The notes under the pieces: model-generated
Seen by the model: only the letters and a program-made list of their open reading frames with translations
What the model was told of the DNA's origin: nothing
Databases searched by the model: none
Position numbers and translations under genes: made by a program
Shown here: positions 5,407 through 27,375 of the stretch, piece by piece
How positions within the stretch are numbered: position 1 is the stretch's first letter
Layout: each line of letters begins with the position of its first letter
Assembly (NCBI GenBank): GCA_021772415.1
Contig: JAJFMA010000266.1
Coordinates: 1 to 41,094, forward strand
Origin: Chlamydiota bacterium
GTDB lineage: Bacteria; Chlamydiota; Chlamydiia; Chlamydiales; JAJFMA01
DNA: 41,094 bases
Direction of reading: 5' to 3'

Positions 5407-7056
5407 ATGCATAAAATGGGGATACCTATGAAGCTATCGGGACAGATTGTCGACATCCATACAAAAGAGATATTCCCTGGAGAGCTTGTTATCGATGACG
5501 GCAAAATCATCGCCATCAACCGCATGGAAGATGCACCTAAGGACCGCTACATCCTTCCTGGCTTCGTAGATGCCCATGTCCATGTTGAGAGCTCGATGCT
5601 TGTGCCTTCGGAATTTGCCCGTATGGCTGTGACACATGGGACTGTGGGAACAGTTTCGGATCCTCACGAGATCGCTAATGTCCTCGGTATTGACGGCATC
5701 CGCTTCATGATTGAAAACGGCAAGCAAGTACCTTTCCATTTCTTTTTTGGAGCCTCGTCGTGTGTACCTGCGACGACCTTCGAGACTGCTGGAGCCAACG
5801 TTGATGTGGAGAATATACGTGCCCTGTTCGAAGAGGATGGCTTGCACTATTTAAGCGAGATGATGAACTACCCCGGAGTTCTCAATAGAGCTCCCGACGT
5901 GATGGAGAAAATTGCACTGGCCCACGATCTAAAAAGGCCCGTCGACGGTCACTCGCCAGGTTTACGTGGTGATGACGCTCAGCGCTACATCGACGCAGGT
6001 ATAGATACCGACCACGAGTGCTTCACTCTCGAAGAAGGGCTGGACAAGGTCTCGCGAGGCATGAAAATACTCATCCGTGAGGGGTCTGCAGCTAGGAATT
6101 TCGAGGCTCTCCAGTCTCTCATTAGCAGCCATCCTAGCGAGGTGATGTTCTGTAGCGACGACAAACACCCGGATGCTTTGGAGTTGGGACACATCAACCT
6201 TCTTGTTCGCGACGCAATACACAAATATGAACATGATCTCTTCGACGTTCTGCGTTGTGCCTGTCTAAACCCGGTAATCCATTACGGGCTTGGTATCGGC
6301 ACACTGCGTGTCGGTGATAGTGCAGATTTCATCGTCGTCAACAATTTAAACGATTTTCATGTCCTCCAGACTTACATCTGTGGGCAACGTGTAGCCAATG
6401 AGGGAACGACTGAGATTCCCTCGGTTCCCGTCACACCAATTAATCAGTTCCATGCCAAGCCCGTTGTCGCTAGCGACTTCATATTGGAAGCTACGGGCAG
6501 CCAAATTCGCGTCATTGAAGCCGAGGAGGGACAGCTCGTCACAAAAGAGGGACACTACCCAGCCAAGATCGAAGATGGGCTGTATGTCTCCGATGTCGAG
6601 CGAGATATCCTCAAACTCACTGTTGTAAACCGCTACAAGCCCACCAAGCCCGCGGTGGCCTTTATCAGGAATTTTGGATTGAAGCGAGGAGCCATCGCCT
6701 CCTGCGTTGCACACGACTCACACAATATCGTCGCTGTGGGAACCTCAGACGCGGAGCTTTCTGCTGCCGTAAACATGGTGATTGGGGGCCAAGGGGGTAT
6801 TGCGGCTACTTGGGGAGGGCAGAGTTCTTACCTGTCTCTACCTGTAGCAGGGATCATGAGCGCTGAAGACGCCTGGGTTGCAGCAAAAAAATACGCTGAA
6901 GTCGACAAGGCAGCAAAAGCTCTAGGCTCGCCTTTGGAAGCACCGTTTATGACACTGTCTTTCATGGCCTTATTAGTCATTCCCTCACTGAAGCTCAGCG
7001 ATCTAGGGCTCTTTGATGGAACAAAGTTTGCATTTACGAGTGTTTCCGTAAGCTAG
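5407..7056 (+). CDS. ade: Adenine deaminase (amidohydrolase superfamily)
   Basis: 549-aa ORF with a metal-binding LPGFVDAHVHVESSML block and the length and C-terminal domain typical of Ade. An alternative start at ATG 5428 has a GGGGA RBS. Confidence 0.92.
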   Translation: MHKMGIPMKLSGQIVDIHTKEIFPGELVIDDGKIIAINRMEDAPKDRYILPGFVDAHVHVESSMLVPSEFARMAVTHGTVGTVSDPHEIANVLGIDGIRFMIENGKQVPFHFFFGASSCVPATTFETAGANVDVENIRALFEEDGLHYLSEMMNYPGVLNRAPDVMEKIALAHDLKRPVDGHSPGLRGDDAQRYIDAGIDTDHECFTLEEGLDKVSRGMKILIREGSAARNFEALQSLISSHPSEVMFCSDDKHPDALELGHINLLVRDAIHKYEHDLFDVLRCACLNPVIHYGLGIGTLRVGDSADFIVVNNLNDFHVLQTYICGQRVANEGTTEIPSVPVTPINQFHAKPVVASDFILEATGSQIRVIEAEEGQLVTKEGHYPAKIEDGLYVSDVERDILKLTVVNRYKPTKPAVAFIRNFGLKRGAIASCVAHDSHNIVAVGTSDAELSAAVNMVIGGQGGIAATWGGQSSYLSLPVAGIMSAEDAWVAAKKYAEVDKAAKALGSPLEAPFMTLSFMALLVIPSLKLSDLGLFDGTKFAFTSVSVS

Positions 7057-7154
7057 GACGCACTTCTGATTCACAGAATAGTCCAGAAACACTCCAAACT
7101 TGATCAATAAATTAATAGATAATATAATTATATTACAAAACGAAAGGTTTTTTA

Positions 7155-8078
7155 ATGAATAAATCAATTATATCTATATACCTAATTATATTTCCATCAT
7201 TAGCATCACCAACCCTTAATAGCGCTCCTGCTACGGACATTTTAGAGGCTGATGCTGTGGCGATAGATGAGTGTGTGGTCAACGACTTTGGTCAAGTTGT
7301 CCGCAATGTTCTACCCCAGCTTGAAGATCAGCTCTATTACCGCATGTGGCACAAGTCTGTTTTACCCGAGGGTGTTGATGCTGCCGAGTATTTAAGCGAG
7401 ACTTTGCCCCATCAAGGAAGTTGTCATGGTCACGCCTTTGCCATTCAAAACGCGTTGTATATGCATCCTGTCATGGACGTTACAACGGCGGTAACGCAGC
7501 AGGCACAAGAGAATGTCACACTTTTCGATGTTATGCGCCTTGTATACACAGAAACCTACACGCATATGGTCCAGTTAGAGGCGCTAGCAGCGGCAGGCGT
7601 TGTGGCCAATCCCGACGGCATCACTTTTGGTCAGATTAAAGAGATTTTGCGCGACGCCTACTACACTCACGTAGACACACTCTTGGGCAGTGCACATAAA
7701 ATTGACATCGTCGAACACGAAGCGGTGCTTCCCGAGAGCCGAGAAGCTTTGGTGGGACAGTTAGTTGATGCACTACAAACAGCCGGAAAGGACAACCAGC
7801 GCATTACAGCTTACATGAACATCATCAGTGGCGACGAGGTGCACTCATCGCTACTACTAACCGCTTGGGCGCCTGAGTACAACCTGGTTGATGCCGACCA
7901 CCCAAGCTTGCTCATTCCTGGACCTAACGCCGAGGGACGCTTCAATGATCTAAAGACCCTCGTCGAAGGGGCTCTAGACTATGCAAAAAACACCTATCTA
8001 CCGGCGTCATCGGAACCCAATTTTCTTCTAATCCAGTTGGTTATCTACGGCGAAAATACAAAAGATGGGCCTGGCTAG
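7155..8078 (+). CDS. Secreted hypothetical protein with a possible papain-like Cys motif
   Basis: 307-aa ORF with a GAAAGG RBS and a very AT-rich 5' region. It has an N-terminal signal-peptide-like segment (MNKSIISIYLIIFPSLASP) and an HQGSCHGHAFAIQNA block (Cys90, codon 7422-7424). Confidence 0.7.
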   Translation: MNKSIISIYLIIFPSLASPTLNSAPATDILEADAVAIDECVVNDFGQVVRNVLPQLEDQLYYRMWHKSVLPEGVDAAEYLSETLPHQGSCHGHAFAIQNALYMHPVMDVTTAVTQQAQENVTLFDVMRLVYTETYTHMVQLEALAAAGVVANPDGITFGQIKEILRDAYYTHVDTLLGSAHKIDIVEHEAVLPESREALVGQLVDALQTAGKDNQRITAYMNIISGDEVHSSLLLTAWAPEYNLVDADHPSLLIPGPNAEGRFNDLKTLVEGALDYAKNTYLPASSEPNFLLIQLVIYGENTKDGPG

Positions 8079-8117: not shown

Positions 8118-8681
8118 TTAGCCAATAAGCTTTCTAGCGTACTCCACTAGAGAAGGCTGGCACTCGCCTCCGTCATCCTCAAGCAGCTGCACAAGGCGTC
8201 GTGTGACTACTGAGAAGGGACTGGTTTCTATGAGGACCTGCCCTGACTGCGTAGTCACTGGAAAACGAAAGCTAGAAAAATAGTATTTTGGAAAGCTTGG
8301 ATGCCAACGGGCGTCTATGTTACGGGCGAATTGAAAGTGATACTCTAAGCATGACCCCACATAGGCTCCACACTGGCTGACAAAGGTCTCCATCTGCTCC
8401 CATGTCGGCTGAGGATTCACGCGGCAAAACTCTTCAAGAAGTGCATCGACGCTGCGGAAGCTTTCGATACTGAAATCGAGCTTTTCTTTAGCAAATTTGG
8501 AACGTTCTGCAACGAACAGACAAGCCATATTTTTGATACCGGCCATCACGAAGCTTTGCTGTTGAATGGATTCGCATGCCACATGATAGGGACTTGCAGA
8601 GGCGAAGGAAGGAACTTCAAAGGTCAGAGGCGCGTTAGGAAGATTAGGATATTTGTGGTTAATGTAACTACCTTCGCTCAT
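8118..8681 (-). CDS. Hypothetical protein
   Basis: 187-aa ORF with an ATG preceded by a GGGGAA RBS. I recognise no motif. Confidence 0.6.
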   Translation of the reverse strand: MSEGSYINHKYPNLPNAPLTFEVPSFASASPYHVACESIQQQSFVMAGIKNMACLFVAERSKFAKEKLDFSIESFRSVDALLEEFCRVNPQPTWEQMETFVSQCGAYVGSCLEYHFQFARNIDARWHPSFPKYYFSSFRFPVTTQSGQVLIETSPFSVVTRRLVQLLEDDGGECQPSLVEYARKLIG

Positions 8682-9035: not shown

Positions 9036-10313
9036 TCACATGGACCTGTACATAGATCGTGGATCGTGCGCATTTAGATAGGCAAGAGCTGACGCGTAGC
9101 GAGCAACGACGTCGGTCGATGGTTCGTAGATATCTAGAGCCACGTCTGTTAGATCGAAACCTCGTTCGCGCAGAAGTCGCAATGCATCGAGGATATGCTC
9201 ATGACCTGGTAAGTAATGCCCACTTCTATTGGATATATAGAGAAGCTTTCCATTGTCATCGACAGTGAACTCTCCGGCACATACAACGGCTCCACCAGCG
9301 AGGTAACTCGTATGATGGAAGCGTCCATTAACAAACTCGCCAGCGTAGAAAGCTAAATCTGGCCCGATAACCCACGCACCGACACTCCGCCGCGATGTGG
9401 CGTGTGCGGCCCGCATTTTACGTGTACTGAAGGGCTTTCCAGCACGTAAAAAAATCCCTCGTTGGGTTGTGGTGTCCAACATGAAATCGTGCTGACGCTC
9501 GTCTGGAACATACATAACATGCCAGCCGTCAGCGACCCTCCTTTGGTACGCACTCGTTCCAAGCCAGTCTAGAAACGAAACGCCTTCAAGGCCATCAGCC
9601 TCCTTCCACTCAGCGATTGCCTCGTCCATTGCAGCTCCAATAGGGTGGCTAGGAGTGACTGCTTCGAGGAAGAAATTTTCACGTAAGATTTTTCCGTGAG
9701 GTGTGCGTCCCTCGATTTTTTGTTCCTTTAATAGAGACCATCCTCGAGTAATCACTAACATGGAATCAAAGAAGCGACTGAGCTTGCATTCCAAACGCTC
9801 GCGAACATCCAGCCATTCTTCTTTGGGGAGTTTGATTTTACCCTCGCGATGTAACTCTTCCCATCGCTCCTCCCGGGCCTTACGCTTTCTGACACTCATC
9901 TGTAGGCGCTCGATAAACTCCTTCGCAATGTCCTCTGGGTCGCATTTTGAATGGGTGATCTCGAGTCGCGGAGAGTTATGGGGACTACCGAAATCGGATC
10001 CACTGCTGTACCCTTCCGGGAGCACGAATTCAAGCCCAGACGATTCTGCCTCCAATATGTTCTCATCCCCTGGAGCCGTCGTAGCAACGCTAATACAGTC
10101 CCGGGAATGATCAGGAATAACAGAGACACTATTCAATGGAAGTACTGTGGAGCTATTGACTGGTTCCGTTGGTAATGCGCTTGGAGTATCCAAGCTCCTG
10201 CGCGCGGCTAGCGCTACATGTAGTGGAACACATATATTGGAGGGTACGTCCTGGTGGATTTTAGTAATCTTACCAAAACCCATGGGCATGACCATCTTTT
10301 CGATAGATTCCAT
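9036..10313 (-). CDS. Eukaryote-like IQM-type domain protein with an IQ-like motif
   Basis: 425-aa ORF. The C-terminal ~180 aa carry AWVIGPDLAFYAGEFVNGRFHHTSYLAGGAVVCAGEF...ISNRSGHYLPGHEHILDALRLLRERGFDLTDV. As I recall plant and fungal IQM proteins, this matches their conserved core (WIFV..LYVG.KKKG.FQHSSFL.GG...AAGRL....SGHY.PT..NF..F..FL.E..VDLT.V). Confidence 0.75.
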   Translation of the reverse strand: MESIEKMVMPMGFGKITKIHQDVPSNICVPLHVALAARRSLDTPSALPTEPVNSSTVLPLNSVSVIPDHSRDCISVATTAPGDENILEAESSGLEFVLPEGYSSGSDFGSPHNSPRLEITHSKCDPEDIAKEFIERLQMSVRKRKAREERWEELHREGKIKLPKEEWLDVRERLECKLSRFFDSMLVITRGWSLLKEQKIEGRTPHGKILRENFFLEAVTPSHPIGAAMDEAIAEWKEADGLEGVSFLDWLGTSAYQRRVADGWHVMYVPDERQHDFMLDTTTQRGIFLRAGKPFSTRKMRAAHATSRRSVGAWVIGPDLAFYAGEFVNGRFHHTSYLAGGAVVCAGEFTVDDNGKLLYISNRSGHYLPGHEHILDALRLLRERGFDLTDVALDIYEPSTDVVARYASALAYLNAHDPRSMYRSM

Positions 10314-10357: not shown

Positions 10358-10864
10358 TCAGTCCTTCCAACTGGAACGCCGCTTTTGCCGCTCTCTAGCG
10401 TGCTCTTGACGAAGGCGGCGCCTTTCGCCGGCTTCTTCAAAGCGTCGCTTTTCCAGGGAAGTTTCAGGGATCACAGGAACAATTTCGGTAGGTTTGTGGT
10501 CATCGTCGACGGCGACGAATGTGAAGTAGGCCGATACAATGTGTTTCTTTGTGGCGGTAGAATAGTGCTCAGAGACAACCTTGACTCCAACCTCCATGGA
10601 GGAGCGCCAACAGCGGTTGAGGGCTGCTTTAAATATCAGAATATCTCCTCGACCTGCGGGAGCTAGGAAGTGCATGGAATCTACAGACACCGTCACGCAA
10701 AGGCGCTCGCTATGTCTTTCCGCGACAACGAGCGCCACACGATCCGACACCGCCATCACCATGCCTCCAAAGACTGTGCCGTGGGAATTGAGATCGTTCG
10801 GAAACACCTTATAGGTGTGGTCGTCAATAGCGGACTGTTGAACGGGTTTTCCTTGCGCGGCCAT
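10358..10864 (-). CDS. Acyl-CoA thioesterase (hotdog fold, YciA/BFIT-like)
   Basis: It carries the blocks VFPNDLNSHGTVFGGMVMAVSDRVA and VSVDSMHFLAPAGRGDILIFKA. ATG 10864 has an AGGGGGA RBS, and the ORF track extends to GTG 10885. Confidence 0.85.
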   Translation of the reverse strand: MAAQGKPVQQSAIDDHTYKVFPNDLNSHGTVFGGMVMAVSDRVALVVAERHSERLCVTVSVDSMHFLAPAGRGDILIFKAALNRCWRSSMEVGVKVVSEHYSTATKKHIVSAYFTFVAVDDDHKPTEIVPVIPETSLEKRRFEEAGERRRLRQEHARERQKRRSSWKD

Positions 10865-11015
10865 GATGCTTCCCCCTGCGGTCACAATGAACGCACTATA
10901 TCAGCAGATCCACGCAAATGCCAACGACATTATCGAGATTGGACTGGCTTTACTTGACCTAAATCCTTGTTATTCTGTTTAGTCGAGATAAAGAGATTAT
11001 TTTAAAGGTTAGAGC

Positions 11016-11579
11016 ATGGCAATAGGTCTAGGAGCGGCAATACTGGCACAGGCAGCAGGGGCTGCAGCAGCCTATTATGGTGCGACGTCGTCATCACCAC
11101 AGAATAACGTTGGTCAATACAATCCTGAGTATACAACGCAGCCTGCGCACCACAACGAATATGTGTACTCAGAGCCGCAGTATAACGAAGATTCGCCTTA
11201 CGGCTACCAGTACTCCCCTAGCCCACAACAAAGACCAGCTTTCCCACAGCAACCTGTTGCCATGTTGGAATCGTCCGGACATACAGCTCATACCGCTAAC
11301 CACAACGAAGTGCTTTACGACTCGCAGTCTATGCCCGACTTCGGTGAGCATTCGCATGGGGACTCGCAAGCTATTGCGCACGTAGACACGGAATCGTCAG
11401 CTCCCGATTCGTGTACAAAAAGACGCAAGTGTAACAAAGACCGGCCACCATCACCATGCCACCCCTATGGGTACATGTACTACCACTATTGGCCTCGGCA
11501 TACGCCTGGTCAGTATCACTATTTCGAGCGCTTTCCGAGACACTACTCCAAAAACGTTTTTGGCTGCCGCAGGCACTAG
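11016..11579 (+). CDS. Hypothetical low-complexity Tyr/Pro/Gln/His-rich protein with an N-terminal hydrophobic helix
   Basis: 187-aa ORF alone in an intergenic gap. It has an Ala/Gly-rich hydrophobic N-terminus and then YNPEY / YGYQYSPSPQQ / HPYGYMYYHYWPRH tracts. Coding status is uncertain. Confidence 0.45.
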   Translation: MAIGLGAAILAQAAGAAAAYYGATSSSPQNNVGQYNPEYTTQPAHHNEYVYSEPQYNEDSPYGYQYSPSPQQRPAFPQQPVAMLESSGHTAHTANHNEVLYDSQSMPDFGEHSHGDSQAIAHVDTESSAPDSCTKRRKCNKDRPPSPCHPYGYMYYHYWPRHTPGQYHYFERFPRHYSKNVFGCRRH

Positions 11580-15274: not shown

Positions 15275-16078
15275 ATGAACATGTTTCAGTTGCTGATTCC
15301 AGGCCTGGAGATCATCATCATCGCGGTGATGTTCTACTACCTGCTATCATTTTTCTGGAACACGCGCGCTATGGACCTCATCCTGGGGCTTGGAGCTTTA
15401 CTGCTCGTCCTTGCTGCGGTTAACTGGCTAAAACTCCCGGTTCTCCAGCGCATGGTCTTCTATATGGGTAACGTCGCTGTTATAGCCCTGCTGATCATCT
15501 TCCAACCTGAGCTACGTCTTGCTCTTGCGCGACTGAGTGTCAAGGGCAAAAAATTTCGCGAAATCACCGAATTTGACTGCTTCCTCGACAATCTCACGCA
15601 ATCGGTGTATCGCTTAGCGGAAAAGCGCATTGGCGCCCTCGTCGTATTGGAAAATCAGGATTCCCTCGATGAATTCGCCAATAAAGCCGTACGCCTTAAC
15701 GCCGAGTTCACGTCAGAGCTGATTGAGTCGCTTTTTAGCACTACGACGCCATTGCACGACGGCGCAGTAATTTTACGTGGAAACACCGTCGTCTCCGCTG
15801 CTACAATATTACCTTTGTCAGACGAAAGCGCCCAGCTTTCTAAATCGATGGGCACGCGCCATCGCGCGGGTCTGGGCATCAGTGAAATGACCGACGCTCT
15901 GATCATCGTCGTATCAGAGGAATCGGGACGTGTTTCTATAGCTCGCGAAGGCATCATCACGCGTGGTGTTAAACCAGACCGTTTCAAAGGGATTGTGCGC
16001 AGCATCTTCACTCCTCCAAAAATCAATGTGCCCACGCGCTATGGCATAGTGGATAAGGTGAAGCAATGGACCACTTAA
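15275..16078 (+). CDS. cdaA: Membrane-bound diadenylate cyclase (c-di-AMP synthase, DisA_N domain)
   Basis: It has three N-terminal TM helices and then the DAC blocks TPLHDGAVIL, GTRHRAGLGISE and VVSEESGRVSIA. Confidence 0.92.
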   Translation: MNMFQLLIPGLEIIIIAVMFYYLLSFFWNTRAMDLILGLGALLLVLAAVNWLKLPVLQRMVFYMGNVAVIALLIIFQPELRLALARLSVKGKKFREITEFDCFLDNLTQSVYRLAEKRIGALVVLENQDSLDEFANKAVRLNAEFTSELIESLFSTTTPLHDGAVILRGNTVVSAATILPLSDESAQLSKSMGTRHRAGLGISEMTDALIIVVSEESGRVSIAREGIITRGVKPDRFKGIVRSIFTPPKINVPTRYGIVDKVKQWTT

Positions 16079-17307
16079 CCTTCTCCCGCCTGTTTAGAGA
16101 CTGGCGCCGCAAGCTTGTTGCACTGTTGGGCGCAGTAGCGGTGTGGATGTTCGTTAACCAGTCCATCACATCCACAAAGACGGTCGCTAACGTACCCGTG
16201 CGCCTTGTAAGCCTACCTCAAGACCGTACCGTTCAGGGTTTGCTACCCAACGGCATCCTTAACCGCAGGGTGACATTAACACTCACGGGCTCAAAAGACC
16301 TGGTCAAATCACTAGAGGCCAGTGATTTGGAAGTTCTCATTGATGCTTCGGGGCTCCCAGACGAATGGATACTCCAGGTTTCTAAAAAGCACCTCGTTAG
16401 CCTAAACCCTGAAATCGACTTGGCCGCACACATCCAGAGCGTGTCGAACAGCGAATTCGTGGTAAACATGAGCCGCCTTGTGACAGAGAAGATCCCTGTC
16501 ACCATAGCGTCGCCTCGAGGATGGGCACCAGAAGGATACCAGTTCCTAGACATCTGGCCACAAACGCTCTTTCACACCGTTACCGGACCGGAGGAACAGG
16601 TCAGAGCATTGCGAGACAAAGGCTTTCAGCTTGTCTTCGATCTCAACCAGATCACCAAGGCGCAGCTCGATGAGCTCAGAAGCTCCGCTGACACCCTGCA
16701 TGCTGACGAAGTCAATTTTATCGTGCCAGAGAGGTGGAAAAGCGTTGTTGTTCCCTTTGATAGTGAAATGCCGGAAACCATCAATGACGCAAAATCCCCG
16801 GATCTCCACATAAGCTTCCTCCGCAAGGAGCAGCTACCTATGGGCAAGAACCTACCTATACGTGTTTTCTACCCCGTAGAATATGCGGATACCATCAATC
16901 CGCAAACGCACCCGTTAATGACCACCCACGTTGTACAGAATGAACAAGGCGTCTACTACTTGGACTACCCGCTCCTTGTAGGGCAGGTAAGCCGCCTATT
17001 CATCGATGTTGTACGAGACAACATGGAAATCGTCGTCGCTGCCGCCCCACAAACTGAGCGCGATTTTTTACAGTGGAGCGTGGAATTTATCAATCAGAGA
17101 GATCTCGAAGACACTTTCGTGAACCTGCTCATGAATGACCGAAGCGAACAAGTGAACTTAAAAAAGAAAGAAGTGCGCCTACGACGACGCTTCCGCGAGT
17201 ACATGCAAAACCTAAGCCTTTACAAGCAGTCGGGTCAGAAGCTGTTACTCGAAGCCCAGATGAAAAATGACGGCATCAGAATCAAAGACATCTCCGACGC
17301 ATTTTAA
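16066..17307 (+). CDS. cdaR: YbbR-domain protein (CdaA regulator)
   Basis: 413 aa with an N-terminal TM anchor. It overlaps the end of cdaA by 13 bp and occupies the conserved operon-partner position. Its repetitive beta-rich composition fits YbbR repeats. Confidence 0.75.
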   Translation: MDHLTFSRLFRDWRRKLVALLGAVAVWMFVNQSITSTKTVANVPVRLVSLPQDRTVQGLLPNGILNRRVTLTLTGSKDLVKSLEASDLEVLIDASGLPDEWILQVSKKHLVSLNPEIDLAAHIQSVSNSEFVVNMSRLVTEKIPVTIASPRGWAPEGYQFLDIWPQTLFHTVTGPEEQVRALRDKGFQLVFDLNQITKAQLDELRSSADTLHADEVNFIVPERWKSVVVPFDSEMPETINDAKSPDLHISFLRKEQLPMGKNLPIRVFYPVEYADTINPQTHPLMTTHVVQNEQGVYYLDYPLLVGQVSRLFIDVVRDNMEIVVAAAPQTERDFLQWSVEFINQRDLEDTFVNLLMNDRSEQVNLKKKEVRLRRRFREYMQNLSLYKQSGQKLLLEAQMKNDGIRIKDISDAF

Positions 17308-25124: not shown

Positions 25125-25712
25125 ATGTCCTTCGTTGGGTTCACGCAAAGACTGATTTCACTATGCGTTGCAGTTCTGGTACTAGCATCCGCTCCCCTTA
25201 GCGCGGAAGTGGTGTGGGTTAAAGTTTCTTGGGATCCGACGTCATGCCCAGGCTCTTGCTATCCCGTACTTGAACGACGCCTCAATGCCATCAAAGGCGT
25301 TGCGGATGCGCACTACAACTTCGTCGAAGGCGAGGCCACATTGAGATGGAAACCCGGATACCAGTACGAAGACCGTCTAATCAAAACTGCCGTTGCTTGG
25401 GTTGGTATAGCAATCGAAGACATCGCTATCAAGATCCGTGGTAGCATCTTCCACGGTGAGAAGCAAGTTTACGTGGCGTCGCTAGGTGATGAGACCAAAC
25501 TTCCTCTTATCAGTGCTCCAAAACCGGAACAGGGGCGCTACGTTATCCGTAAAGGTGAGGGAGCCCACAAGCTGGACAGCAAAGAACGTGAGCGCCTACT
25601 TCAGGCCGAAGAGAATTTCGAGCTCATTACAATCGAAGGCAGGATTTTTCAACCCTACCGCCCTCCAGTTCGATTGATGATCGACCGCGTTAGCTATCCG
25701 ACGCCGTTGTAG
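25125..25712 (+). CDS. Secreted hypothetical protein, possibly with an HMA-like fold
   Basis: 195 aa with a signal peptide (..LASAPLSAEV). The segment CPGSCYPVLERRLNAIKGVADAHYNFVEGEATLRW loosely resembles a heavy-metal-associated domain, but with CxxxC. Confidence 0.6.
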   Translation: MSFVGFTQRLISLCVAVLVLASAPLSAEVVWVKVSWDPTSCPGSCYPVLERRLNAIKGVADAHYNFVEGEATLRWKPGYQYEDRLIKTAVAWVGIAIEDIAIKIRGSIFHGEKQVYVASLGDETKLPLISAPKPEQGRYVIRKGEGAHKLDSKERERLLQAEENFELITIEGRIFQPYRPPVRLMIDRVSYPTPL

Positions 25713-25770: not shown

Positions 25771-27375
25771 GTGAATACTCTGGAAGGTACAGAAACAGAC
25801 GTATCCAAGAACGTAGCGGGAAGTTCCAGTGAACACGCACTTGTGGCTCCAAAGCCTCCCGTCCTCAACTGGACGGAGCTACTTTCCCTCGGTAAACTAC
25901 AAGCACCTAAAGCCACACCTGAAAAGGCTCAAGAGCTCCTGGAAAATGTTTGTGTTGGTGTACTTAGCAGTGATTACGATCCCCGTATCAAGCACCTGTT
26001 TAAACTGTTTTTAGATGGTTCCGATGGTGAGCTGGCCAACTACATCGAGCACTTGATAGGTCATAATCCACAGTTGGTTGAGCAGCTAACCACTGAAGTG
26101 CTGGCCCCCAACAAGACCATCGTACCGGTTACTCTTCTTCTAGCCACCGTCCTTAAGGGAAGCGCTCCAGCGTTCAAAGCTCTTTGGCGTCTAGGTACGA
26201 GACCACAAAACGACAAGTTGAAGTACAGCGAACTTCATTGGGCAGCGATGCTATTGCGCACTGATATACTTAAATTCGTCAGTACAGAAGCCAAGCGAAA
26301 GCCTTGGCTAGATAAATACCGAAACACTTACGGGGCTACACCTAAGAGCATTCTCACGTACATGATCGAACCCTCTACTATTAGTATCAGCTTGGACGGT
26401 GAGGCTCCATGCACCACGCAAGAGGAGTTTAAAAGCAAGTGGGCCAAAGAGTTTCTTCCCACCGGGCGCTGGGATTTTGATGCGCTCTATCATCTGCGTA
26501 TGGAAGGGGACCCAAGACTTGCGGACCTCAATATGGACCCAATTGGGAAGCACCTTTCTAAGCAATGCCTCGCCCAACTCCCTTACTCCCCGACTCCACC
26601 TGTTCATGTTGTAGATCTAACCCACAACGACAAAATGAAGCCCGTCCCCGATGAAATAGTGGGTCAGAAGCAAGCTATTGCATCCCGTGGCATAGAAGCC
26701 GGAGAGTTGATTTGCCTATATGGAGGAGAAATTCGCAAACTCATCCCTGGATCCAAAACATACGTAGAAGACATGACCCTAGCTAACGCCTACATACATT
26801 CGGTAGTATGCTGCAGCCACGACAAAAGCAATGCAGCACCCTACATGAATGATGGCCGACCAAACGTGGCACTACGGCCCATTCTAGTGCAAGGCATTCC
26901 ACAAAGAGCCGTATATGCGTTAGAGAACATCACAGCCGGAACCCCCCTAAGACAGCTCTATACCGGAAACTGGTTCCTATTAAATGAGATCGAGCATGTG
27001 GAGCTCCACCCAAAGGCTCTAGAAGTATTTATTAAGGAGACAAACGGACTCAAATTCATGTCTCCGATGATATTCGATGGCAAGACGGCTGTGAGTTTCG
27101 AATTGAAATCGGGAAAATGCGATTACACAGGTGCCAAAATCACCGGACCAGAGAACATCCTCAACTGCCATCTCGCAACGAAGCGTAACCAACTCGGGCT
27201 TGGCTACATCTTCGCTAACAACAACTGGAAATACGTGATCGATAATAAGCTCGCTACACCATCGATGCTCCTCGGATGGCTCGAAGTCATCACTTTGTAT
27301 AAAATACCTAACCTCTTCCACCTGAGTCCAGAGCGCGTACTACTACTCAAAAGTGAACTCACGAAGCTTCTGTAG
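25771..27375 (+). CDS. SET-domain protein with an N-terminal ankyrin-like region (putative protein lysine methyltransferase)
   Basis: 534 aa with a GTG start 8 nt after AAGGAG. It has the SET-like blocks GELICLYGGEI, APYMNDGRPNV (NHSxxPN-like) and GTPLRQLY. The ankyrin-like segment is SELHWAAMLLRTDILKFV. Confidence 0.75.
   Translation: MNTLEGTETDVSKNVAGSSSEHALVAPKPPVLNWTELLSLGKLQAPKATPEKAQELLENVCVGVLSSDYDPRIKHLFKLFLDGSDGELANYIEHLIGHNPQLVEQLTTEVLAPNKTIVPVTLLLATVLKGSAPAFKALWRLGTRPQNDKLKYSELHWAAMLLRTDILKFVSTEAKRKPWLDKYRNTYGATPKSILTYMIEPSTISISLDGEAPCTTQEEFKSKWAKEFLPTGRWDFDALYHLRMEGDPRLADLNMDPIGKHLSKQCLAQLPYSPTPPVHVVDLTHNDKMKPVPDEIVGQKQAIASRGIEAGELICLYGGEIRKLIPGSKTYVEDMTLANAYIHSVVCCSHDKSNAAPYMNDGRPNVALRPILVQGIPQRAVYALENITAGTPLRQLYTGNWFLLNEIEHVELHPKALEVFIKETNGLKFMSPMIFDGKTAVSFELKSGKCDYTGAKITGPENILNCHLATKRNQLGLGYIFANNNWKYVIDNKLATPSMLLGWLEVITLYKIPNLFHLSPERVLLLKSELTKLL

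Follow-up and report, generated by a model that had tools for sequence, protein, structure and literature searches.

The window analysed here is the whole of contig JAJFMA010000266.1 (41,094 nucleotides) from the Chlamydiota assembly GCA_021772415.1. Its minus strand carries at 9036–10313 a complete open reading frame (ORF) of 425 amino acids, with an ATG start and a TGA stop, which had been proposed from the sequence alone to encode a eukaryote-derived or eukaryote-mimicking member of the IQM family, retaining a calmodulin-binding IQ motif (hereafter the original prediction). The peptide blocks on which that proposal was built are all found where it had placed them (FFLEAVTPSHPIG at residues 214–226, FLDWLGT at 247–253, AWVIGPDLAFYAGEFVNGRFHHTSYLAGGAVVCAGEF at 313–349 and SGHYLPGHEH at 364–373). 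As judged by profile comparisons, residues ~198–400 are homologous to the core of plant, fungal and amoebal IQM proteins, of which the window protein is a distant relative, and the nearest relatives of this core form a large and mostly bacterial or metagenomic family.

Residues 1–125 (9939–10313, minus strand, as are all features of this gene) form a Ser/Pro-rich region, as seen from composition and hydropathy, in which neither a hydrophobic signal peptide nor a transmembrane segment was found. The description of the N-terminal 130 residues as Ser/Pro-rich and unrelated to IQM proteins was borne out in moderate form (14% Ser and 10% Pro): none of the 3,157 relatives described below covers the first ~87 residues, and a single one, P0259, extends weakly back to residue 88. 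This stretch would be a disordered leader and possibly carries a secretion signal. It is followed by two long predicted helices. The first, highly charged, spans residues 126–156 (9846–9938; residues 2–32 in the numbering of the AlphaFold2 model, with a predicted local distance difference test score (pLDDT) of about 69–83) and includes, 55 residues before the start of the core, the string LQMSVRKRKAR (residues 137–147, 9873–9905), which matches a relaxed IQ pattern at the level of the pattern only. The second, supported by the model and by the alignment of relatives, spans residues 164–197 (9723–9824) and comprises the linker KEEWLDVRERLECK (EELHR...KEEWVEMR.GLE.K), common to the window protein and to its closest chlamydial-type relatives, P0124 and P0132.

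The IQM-type core itself is an alpha/beta domain assigned by profile homology to residues 198–400 (9114–9722), with pLDDT values mostly between 80 and 97. Its N-terminal block (residues 208–253, 9555–9692) reads FFLEAVTPSHPIG...W...FLDWLGT and contains the family-invariant residues E217 and W236. Its C-terminal module (residues 306–400, 9114–9398) is the minimal unit of the family, occurring alone and in tandem arrays in two-partner secretion (TPS) and extracellular contractile injection system (eCIS) proteins. Two signatures lie within this module: FHHTSYLAGG (residues 332–341, 9291–9320; family consensus F[HQ]HSSFLAGG, with invariant H334 and S336) and SGHY (residues 364–367, 9213–9224), which is 92–100% conserved in the bacterial and eukaryotic branches. 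A hidden Markov model scan of all window ORFs found no second copy of the core, and scans of the window protein and of canonical relatives against Pfam, NCBIfam, PADLOC and PHROGs gave no match.

A word-indexed protein search with the target returned two non-self matches. P0002 is a bacterial-looking metagenomic protein of high guanine-plus-cytosine content, 43% identical over the last ~75 residues of the region only, and P0003 is a Cryptococcus 'IQ domain-containing calmodulin-binding protein' aligned in two colinear BLASTP segments (query residues 206–251 and 306–393). When P0003 was used as the query, 179 fungal/amoebal proteins were retrieved, many of them named 'IQM6' or 'IQ calmodulin-binding motif protein'. 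Compared by hhalign, the window protein matched 20 fungal/amoebal IQMs with a probability of 97.7% (E = 1.9e-12, residues 205–394) and 16 plant IQMs with a probability of 98.6% (E = 1.1e-15, residues 208–395). In the reciprocal direction, a profile built from 37 bacterial-type core segments and the window core (A2) matched plant IQM1, IQM2, IQM3 and IQM6 with E-values of 1e-43 to 1e-34. Since both hhalign comparisons and the reciprocal A2 matches lie far above chance, the claimed homology to the IQM core stands, and the lack of significant similarity in profile searches that the original prediction had named as its refutation was not observed.

Relative to the plant proteins (Arabidopsis IQM1–6, rice OsIQM1–8) and to fungal/amoebal IQMs, the window protein has a homologous core of ~200 residues with the same order of blocks, and matches the conserved core region of that family, HWLEAIDPRHRYG...FFYWLD...LYVG.K.G.F[QH]HSSFLAGG...AAG...SGHYRP...V[DN]L..V. 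The two share the Glu of LEA, the Trp, F[HQ]HSSFLAGG, AG and SGHY-P as invariants, as well as a helical region before the core, in which the window protein carries its relaxed IQ pattern at a plant-like distance. Nevertheless, several residues invariant in eukaryotes are altered, LEAID being replaced by LEAVT, the Lys of LYVGxK by Phe and FQHSSF by FHHTSY. The window protein also differs in falling within a bacterial clade, and in that its IQ-like region is non-homologous to that of the eukaryotic proteins and its relatives lack the motif.

An exhaustive HMMER search with the window protein as the query, covering 1.84 billion cluster representatives, identified 3,157 relatives at E ≤ 1e-3, of which 366 reach E ≤ 1e-10. 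Phmmer E-values for 150 relatives range from 1e-33 to 1e-14, and the best of them (E about 1e-33) outscore by far every eukaryotic IQM from the word-indexed search. The closest named relatives, at about that value, are a Nostoc 'eCIS core domain-containing' protein and a protein from a Chlamydiales metagenome-assembled genome (MAG); further named members include a Chlamydiae MAG protein and a Parachlamydia protein. The A2 profile also matches named proteins of Parachlamydia, Rubripirellula, Nocardia, Myxococcales, Bacteriovoracia and Pseudomonadales, and named members thus span Chlamydiota, Cyanobacteria, Planctomycetota, Actinomycetota, Myxococcota, Bdellovibrionota and Pseudomonadota. The window protein itself scores 205.5 bits against A2 over residues 198–400, a value inflated by the inclusion of the window core in the profile, and displays the two-block core typical of the bacterial family (E217, W236, H334-S-S, G340, A346-G347 and S364-G365-H366-Y367, with the substitution at the first Ser described below).

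The bacterial nature of three family loci on long contigs is unmistakable from their compact arrays of housekeeping genes. In each of them the family gene is isolated among orphan ORFs, and in two of the three adjacent paralogues are found, either convergent (L082, 7992–8990 on the plus and 9077–10219 on the minus strand) or in tandem as short forms (L085, 9881–10591 and 10875–11561, both plus). These side-by-side paralogues point to local gene duplication within the family. No orthologue more than 50% identical to the window protein was found in 15 billion proteins; a genome-contig scan with the target protein returned no relatives, and the identical protein is on record nowhere else. Viral contigs (IMG/VR) scanned with the bacterial family profile contained no member. 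Our literature search found no published description of bacterial IQM-core proteins, of the signature motif or of the payload domain. Some members (P0143, P0151, P0152, P0153 and P0140) possess another conserved N-terminal region (...GGHTWKL.K..., ...EFK.FAR.I...) which is absent from the window protein, so that the family has at least two N-terminal architectures.

In order to place the window protein within the superfamily, 150 cores were aligned to the A2 model (206 match columns) and a neighbour-joining tree was calculated, with 500 bootstrap replicates performed by the same method on a 46-taxon subset. The window protein is on average 30% identical to bacterial and metagenomic members (maximum 38%), 27% to plants and 25% to fungi, and groups in the tree with P0124 (a Chlamydiales MAG protein), P0132 and P0197. 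All 35 labelled eukaryotes fall in one clade free of other sequences. The sequence directly sister to this clade, P0260, likewise belongs to the eukaryote type of IQM and carries an IQ motif, and the next sister group includes a planctomycete protein, P0291. The eukaryote-only split was recovered in 498 of 500 bootstraps and a split joining the window protein to the eukaryotes in none, placing the former outside the eukaryotic clade. The phylogeny that the original prediction had proposed as a check for transfer from a host lineage therefore rules out a recent acquisition from a eukaryotic host, and its description of the protein as eukaryote-derived is not supported, in view of the large bacterial family, the closer identity to bacteria and a joint split that no bootstrap recovered. 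Because of this tree and of the greater taxonomic and architectural diversity among bacteria, the sequences suggest a bacterial origin of the IQM-core domain, while not proving the direction of transfer.

Polymorphic toxins carry their payload at the C-terminal position of TPS exoproteins, and this is where the core is found in several giant members of the family. P0137 (3,947 residues) and P0139 (4,028 residues) combine a TPS domain and Fil_haemagg_2 repeats with three to four C-terminal modules at their extreme C-terminus. In P0123 and P0126, two full IQM cores come after a Pfam eCIS_core (DUF4157) domain, an arrangement that corresponds to the published rule for eCIS toxins, in which DUF4157 is N-terminal and the toxin C-terminal (PMC8213781). 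In the eight multi-module proteins listed, the HS[ST] and SGHY motifs are intact in every repeat shown. Given its payload position, the core would be a delivered effector or toxin module in the TPS and eCIS proteins of these bacteria. The window protein shares with these TpsA/CdiA-like exoproteins and eCIS cargo the same core or C-terminal module, but it is short and stands alone, with one full core instead of tandem modules. A Pfam scan found in it no TPS, filamentous haemagglutinin (FHA)-repeat, eCIS-core or any other Pfam domain, so that no N-terminal trafficking domain (TPS with FHA repeats, or DUF4157) is present on the same polypeptide.

The AlphaFold2 model of residues 125–425, calculated from an 87-sequence alignment, has a mean pLDDT of 84 and a predicted template-modelling score of 0.81, and consists of helices 126–156 and 164–197 followed by the alpha/beta core. 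A second model, calculated for the canonical relative P0128, agrees in the topology of the core, where its pLDDT exceeds 90. The bacterial and eukaryotic branches have 16 conserved alignment positions in common, of which the window protein keeps 13 (E217, W236, V315, H334, S336, G340, A346, G347, G355, S364, G365, H366 and Y367) and conservatively exchanges two (S335T and F337Y). That both branches share this Glu/His/Ser-Gly-His-Tyr constellation implies, as far as conservation can indicate, that the polar set E217, H334, S336, S364, H366 and Y367 would serve one conserved molecular function, either catalytic or in metal or ligand binding.

Two fold assignments were considered for the core and rejected. 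Many sub-threshold matches to the PD-(D/E)XK nuclease fold were obtained (Cas4, phage exonucleases, cap-snatching and tRNA-splicing endonucleases), each insignificant, and the candidate PD...ExK residues are conserved neither in plants nor in the window protein. The likeness of IQMs to trichosanthin, a ribosome-inactivating protein, claimed in the older plant literature, was not supported by any of the sequence or fold searches. The sole significant structural match was to BFVD entry G8DGH9, an unnamed viral protein of 351 residues (E = 4.9e-6, 212 columns, 16% identity), which could mean that the IQM-core family has a viral member.

In the window, the target is flanked by three ORFs lacking Pfam matches, at 7155–8078 (plus), 8118–8681 (minus) and 11016–11579 (plus), with which it forms a small orphan island between an adenine deaminase gene and cydAB. 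The gene immediately upstream, at 10358–10885 (minus), encodes a 4HBT-family thioesterase and ends 44 bp from the target start codon. A promoter-like site is present upstream of the thioesterase gene (10924–10895, minus) and none in the 44-bp gap, the number of such sites not exceeding shuffle expectation. The downstream orphan at 8118–8681 encodes 187 residues and lies 354 bp from the target, with minus-strand promoter-like sites in the spacer. No chaperone-like Pfam match was found among the window neighbours, and Rfam, tRNA and RNA-folding checks of the target flanks revealed nothing notable. No IQM-core gene was present near cydAB in 80 fetched loci, including about eight chlamydial MAGs.

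We consider it probable that the gene encodes a secreted chlamydial effector with a divergent IQM core of the bacterial branch. In this model, an environmental, Parachlamydiales-like chlamydia would produce a stand-alone protein, composed of a Ser/Pro-rich leader of ~125 residues, probably disordered, two long helices and the alpha/beta core of ~200 residues, and belonging to the bacterial branch of an 'IQM-core' superfamily. The protein would be secreted as an effector, most likely as a type III substrate through its disordered N-terminus, and would act in the cytosol of a protist host, where the Glu/His/Ser-Gly-His-Tyr site would perform the same catalytic or ligand/metal-binding activity as the eukaryotic IQM core. 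The leader, having neither signal peptide nor transmembrane segment, is compatible with a type III effector, and the genomic setting is effector-like, with the target alone among orphan ORFs and adjacent paralogues in other bacteria. The Parachlamydia relative at locus L086 lies two genes away from a weak YbjN-like match.

Several observations weigh against this interpretation. No secretion signal, chaperone or delivery domain has been demonstrated for the window protein itself, and its gene may be co-transcribed with that of the housekeeping-type thioesterase, which would fit a cytoplasmic role. The nearest grouping of the window protein in the tree is weakly supported (20–72 of 500 bootstraps), and most of its close relatives are metagenomic sequences without an organism name. 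Foldseek searches of the PDB with the models of window residues 125–425 and of P0128 gave no significant match (best E-values 0.83 and 0.88), neither the single sequence nor the A2 profile matched any PDB sequence, and no Pfam model for the IQM core matched the window protein or its canonical relatives. Moreover, tandem C-terminal modules, as seen in the giant proteins, are unusual for catalytic toxin domains and could mean that this is a binding module.

An alternative that we regard as unlikely, although it has some support, is that the product is a non-secreted cytoplasmic protein with an ordinary enzymatic or regulatory role, perhaps tied to the adjacent acyl-CoA thioesterase, and without any interaction with the host. 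The close spacing and the promoter-like site found only upstream of the thioesterase gene agree with such a role, as do the absence of a recognisable secretion or delivery domain in the Pfam scan and the existence of short stand-alone members in free-living bacteria such as Nocardia and Rubripirellula. However, synteny with the thioesterase or with cydAB is not conserved in related chlamydial loci or in three other family loci, and the recurrent fusion to TPS and eCIS proteins argues that the domain acts outside the producing cell. Lineage-specific expansion of paralogues and very fast divergence are, in addition, typical of effectors and not of housekeeping genes, and a long low-complexity N-terminal leader is not what this alternative would lead one to expect.

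It is decidedly unlikely, in our assessment, that the window encodes a eukaryote-derived or eukaryote-mimicking IQM that keeps its N-terminal IQ motif and binds host calmodulin, either for its own activation or in order to interfere with Ca2+/calmodulin–IQM signalling. A single IQ motif N-terminal to the core is a common characteristic of all IQMs (PMC8469326), and LQMSVRKRKAR does fit, as predicted, the pattern [ILV]Qxxx[RK]xxxx[RK] with the Gly missing, a feature shared with the experimentally validated motif LQKVYKSYRTR of Arabidopsis IQM4 (PMC6008652), in which changes equivalent to a deletion of L137-Q138 or to L137N abolish binding to CaM5. Its distance of 55 residues from the core, within a predicted long helix, is close to the median offset of −59 in the plant-containing hit set. 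The chance expectation of such a string is only about 0.01–0.02 per protein, given that the pattern arises on shuffling the window protein in 1.1% of trials in its strict and 2.5% in its loose form and that the rate among 149 relatives is 0.044 per 1000 residues, or about 0.02 per protein of this size. Amoebae, the likely hosts, carry IQM proteins (P0119), and bacterial effectors that depend on host calmodulin are known, for example the IQ-motif-containing SidJ (PMC6858067).

Conservation points the other way. The strict pattern precedes the core in 62 of 105 fungal/amoebal IQMs and in none of 110 close relatives of the window protein, and the full IQ consensus, present in 42 of 120 eukaryotic members, is absent from the window protein and occurs nowhere in 149 relatives. 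At the equivalent site P0124 and P0132, the nearest relatives with the same linker, show no IQ pattern. Compared with a model of the plant sequence from the IQ motif to the core, residues 120–207 reach −0.1 bits, with 111 of 500 shuffles equally good, and both hhalign alignments to IQMs end at residues 205–208, short of the string. The Pfam IQ model does not match the window protein, the hydrophobic anchor of the string is at +14 instead of +13, the phylogeny excludes recent acquisition from eukaryotes, and no orthologue above 50% identity exists among the 15 billion proteins in which the motif could be seen to be conserved. As the relatives lack the motif and the surrounding region is not homologous to the plant IQ region, retention of the string from a eukaryotic ancestor, as in the original prediction, is unlikely, and LQMSVRKRKAR would be a chance match or a lineage-specific gain. 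Functional calmodulin binding through it lies outside the supported model and seems doubtful to us. The comparison with Legionella SidJ, a calmodulin-activated glutamylase with an IQ motif (PMC6858067), is accordingly one of function only, concerning a helical IQ-type string and host calmodulin as a possible switch: the folds are unrelated, SidJ being kinase-like and the IQM core being without a solved relative, and calmodulin binding has been demonstrated structurally for SidJ, whereas for the window protein conservation does not support it.

Less probable still is a combined scenario in which the bacterial core is an ancient effector or toxin payload of a previously unrecognised fold that eukaryotes gained once and equipped with an IQ helix, and so brought under calmodulin control. 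The chlamydial protein would then be a translocated effector performing the reaction of host IQMs on the pathway that these normally serve, with an IQ-type helix of its own (LQMSVRKRKAR), evolved independently, through which host calmodulin alone would switch it on, as with SidJ. Finally, a remnant of an antibacterial polymorphic toxin used in interbacterial competition, with an immunity partner such as the orphan at 8118–8681, is highly improbable, for although the domain is C-terminal in TPS/CdiA-like proteins and eCIS cargo and a 187-residue orphan follows on the same strand, no delivery domain was detected by Pfam in the window protein, that orphan is 354 bp away beyond minus-strand promoter-like sites, chlamydiae, being obligately intracellular, have few occasions for contact-dependent competition, and a generally lethal activity would fit poorly with the conservation of the same site in regulatory proteins of eukaryotes.

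The preferred reading, of a candidate chlamydial effector with a bacterial-type IQM core, bears on both plant and chlamydial biology. The IQM family has been described as plant-specific (PMC8469326), and its C-terminal region, although essential, has been assigned no biochemical activity in the literature (PMC9271181). In the best-supported reading, eukaryotes use the IQM core, fused to an IQ motif, in Ca2+/calmodulin signalling. The analysis shows that the plant region belongs, as a single branch, to a large superfamily, the members of which, where named and checked for context, are bacterial, and that bacteria load the core onto two-partner-secretion and contractile-injection delivery proteins. 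Bacterial toxin systems, which are tractable, could serve to assay the activity of the core, and the results could then be carried to Ca2+, auxin and abscisic acid signalling in plants. For chlamydial biology, our analysis puts forward a candidate new family of effectors that has expanded in environmental chlamydiae and whose domain is shared with proteins of amoebal hosts. As the IQM core has no solved structural relative, it is also a target for structure determination.

The remaining genes of the window are bacterial and chlamydia-like, including cysS, an aas-like acyltransferase-ACP-AMP-ligase fusion, adenine deaminase, cydAB, folP and cdaA-ybbR, together with genes for a GT4 glycosyltransferase, rsmE, two-component proteins and pyruvate kinase. 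The best matches to CydA in a set of 185,579 species genomes come from Parachlamydiales/Chlamydiae MAGs at 63–65% identity, which indicates an environmental chlamydia distant from every representative. Within the orphan island, the ORF at 7155–8078 begins with a signal-peptide-like hydrophobic stretch (MNKSIISIYLIIFPSLASP), and that at 11016–11579 encodes a low-complexity protein rich in Gln, Pro, Tyr and His. At the Parachlamydia MAG locus L086, the IQM-core gene follows the weak YbjN-like gene and an Exo_endo_phos gene (6370–6876 and 6925–7923). The YbjN family has a type III chaperone-like fold, and this trio could be an effector cluster.

Elsewhere in the window, three ORFs on the plus strand have no Pfam match (25125–25712, 195 residues; 27629–30838, 1,069 residues; and 30941–33640, 899 residues), the two large ones being consecutive, and are, in a chlamydial genome, typical candidates for lineage-specific effectors or for inclusion or surface proteins. 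The ORF at 25771–27375 (plus, 534 residues) has a sub-threshold match to the SET domain (E = 9e-4, 20 bits against a cut-off of 22.4) and could encode an effector resembling eukaryotic histone methyltransferases, as NUE does in Chlamydia. The ORF at 35051–37522 (minus, 823 residues, TTG start) matches UvrA-type domains, namely UvrA_inter and two ABC ATPase halves. Its product looks short for a UvrA and may represent a paralogue, or the start of the ORF may be wrongly placed. Lastly, a cdaA and ybbR pair at 15275–17307 (plus), the former encoding a DAC-domain synthase of cyclic di-AMP, is consistent with signalling through this nucleotide.

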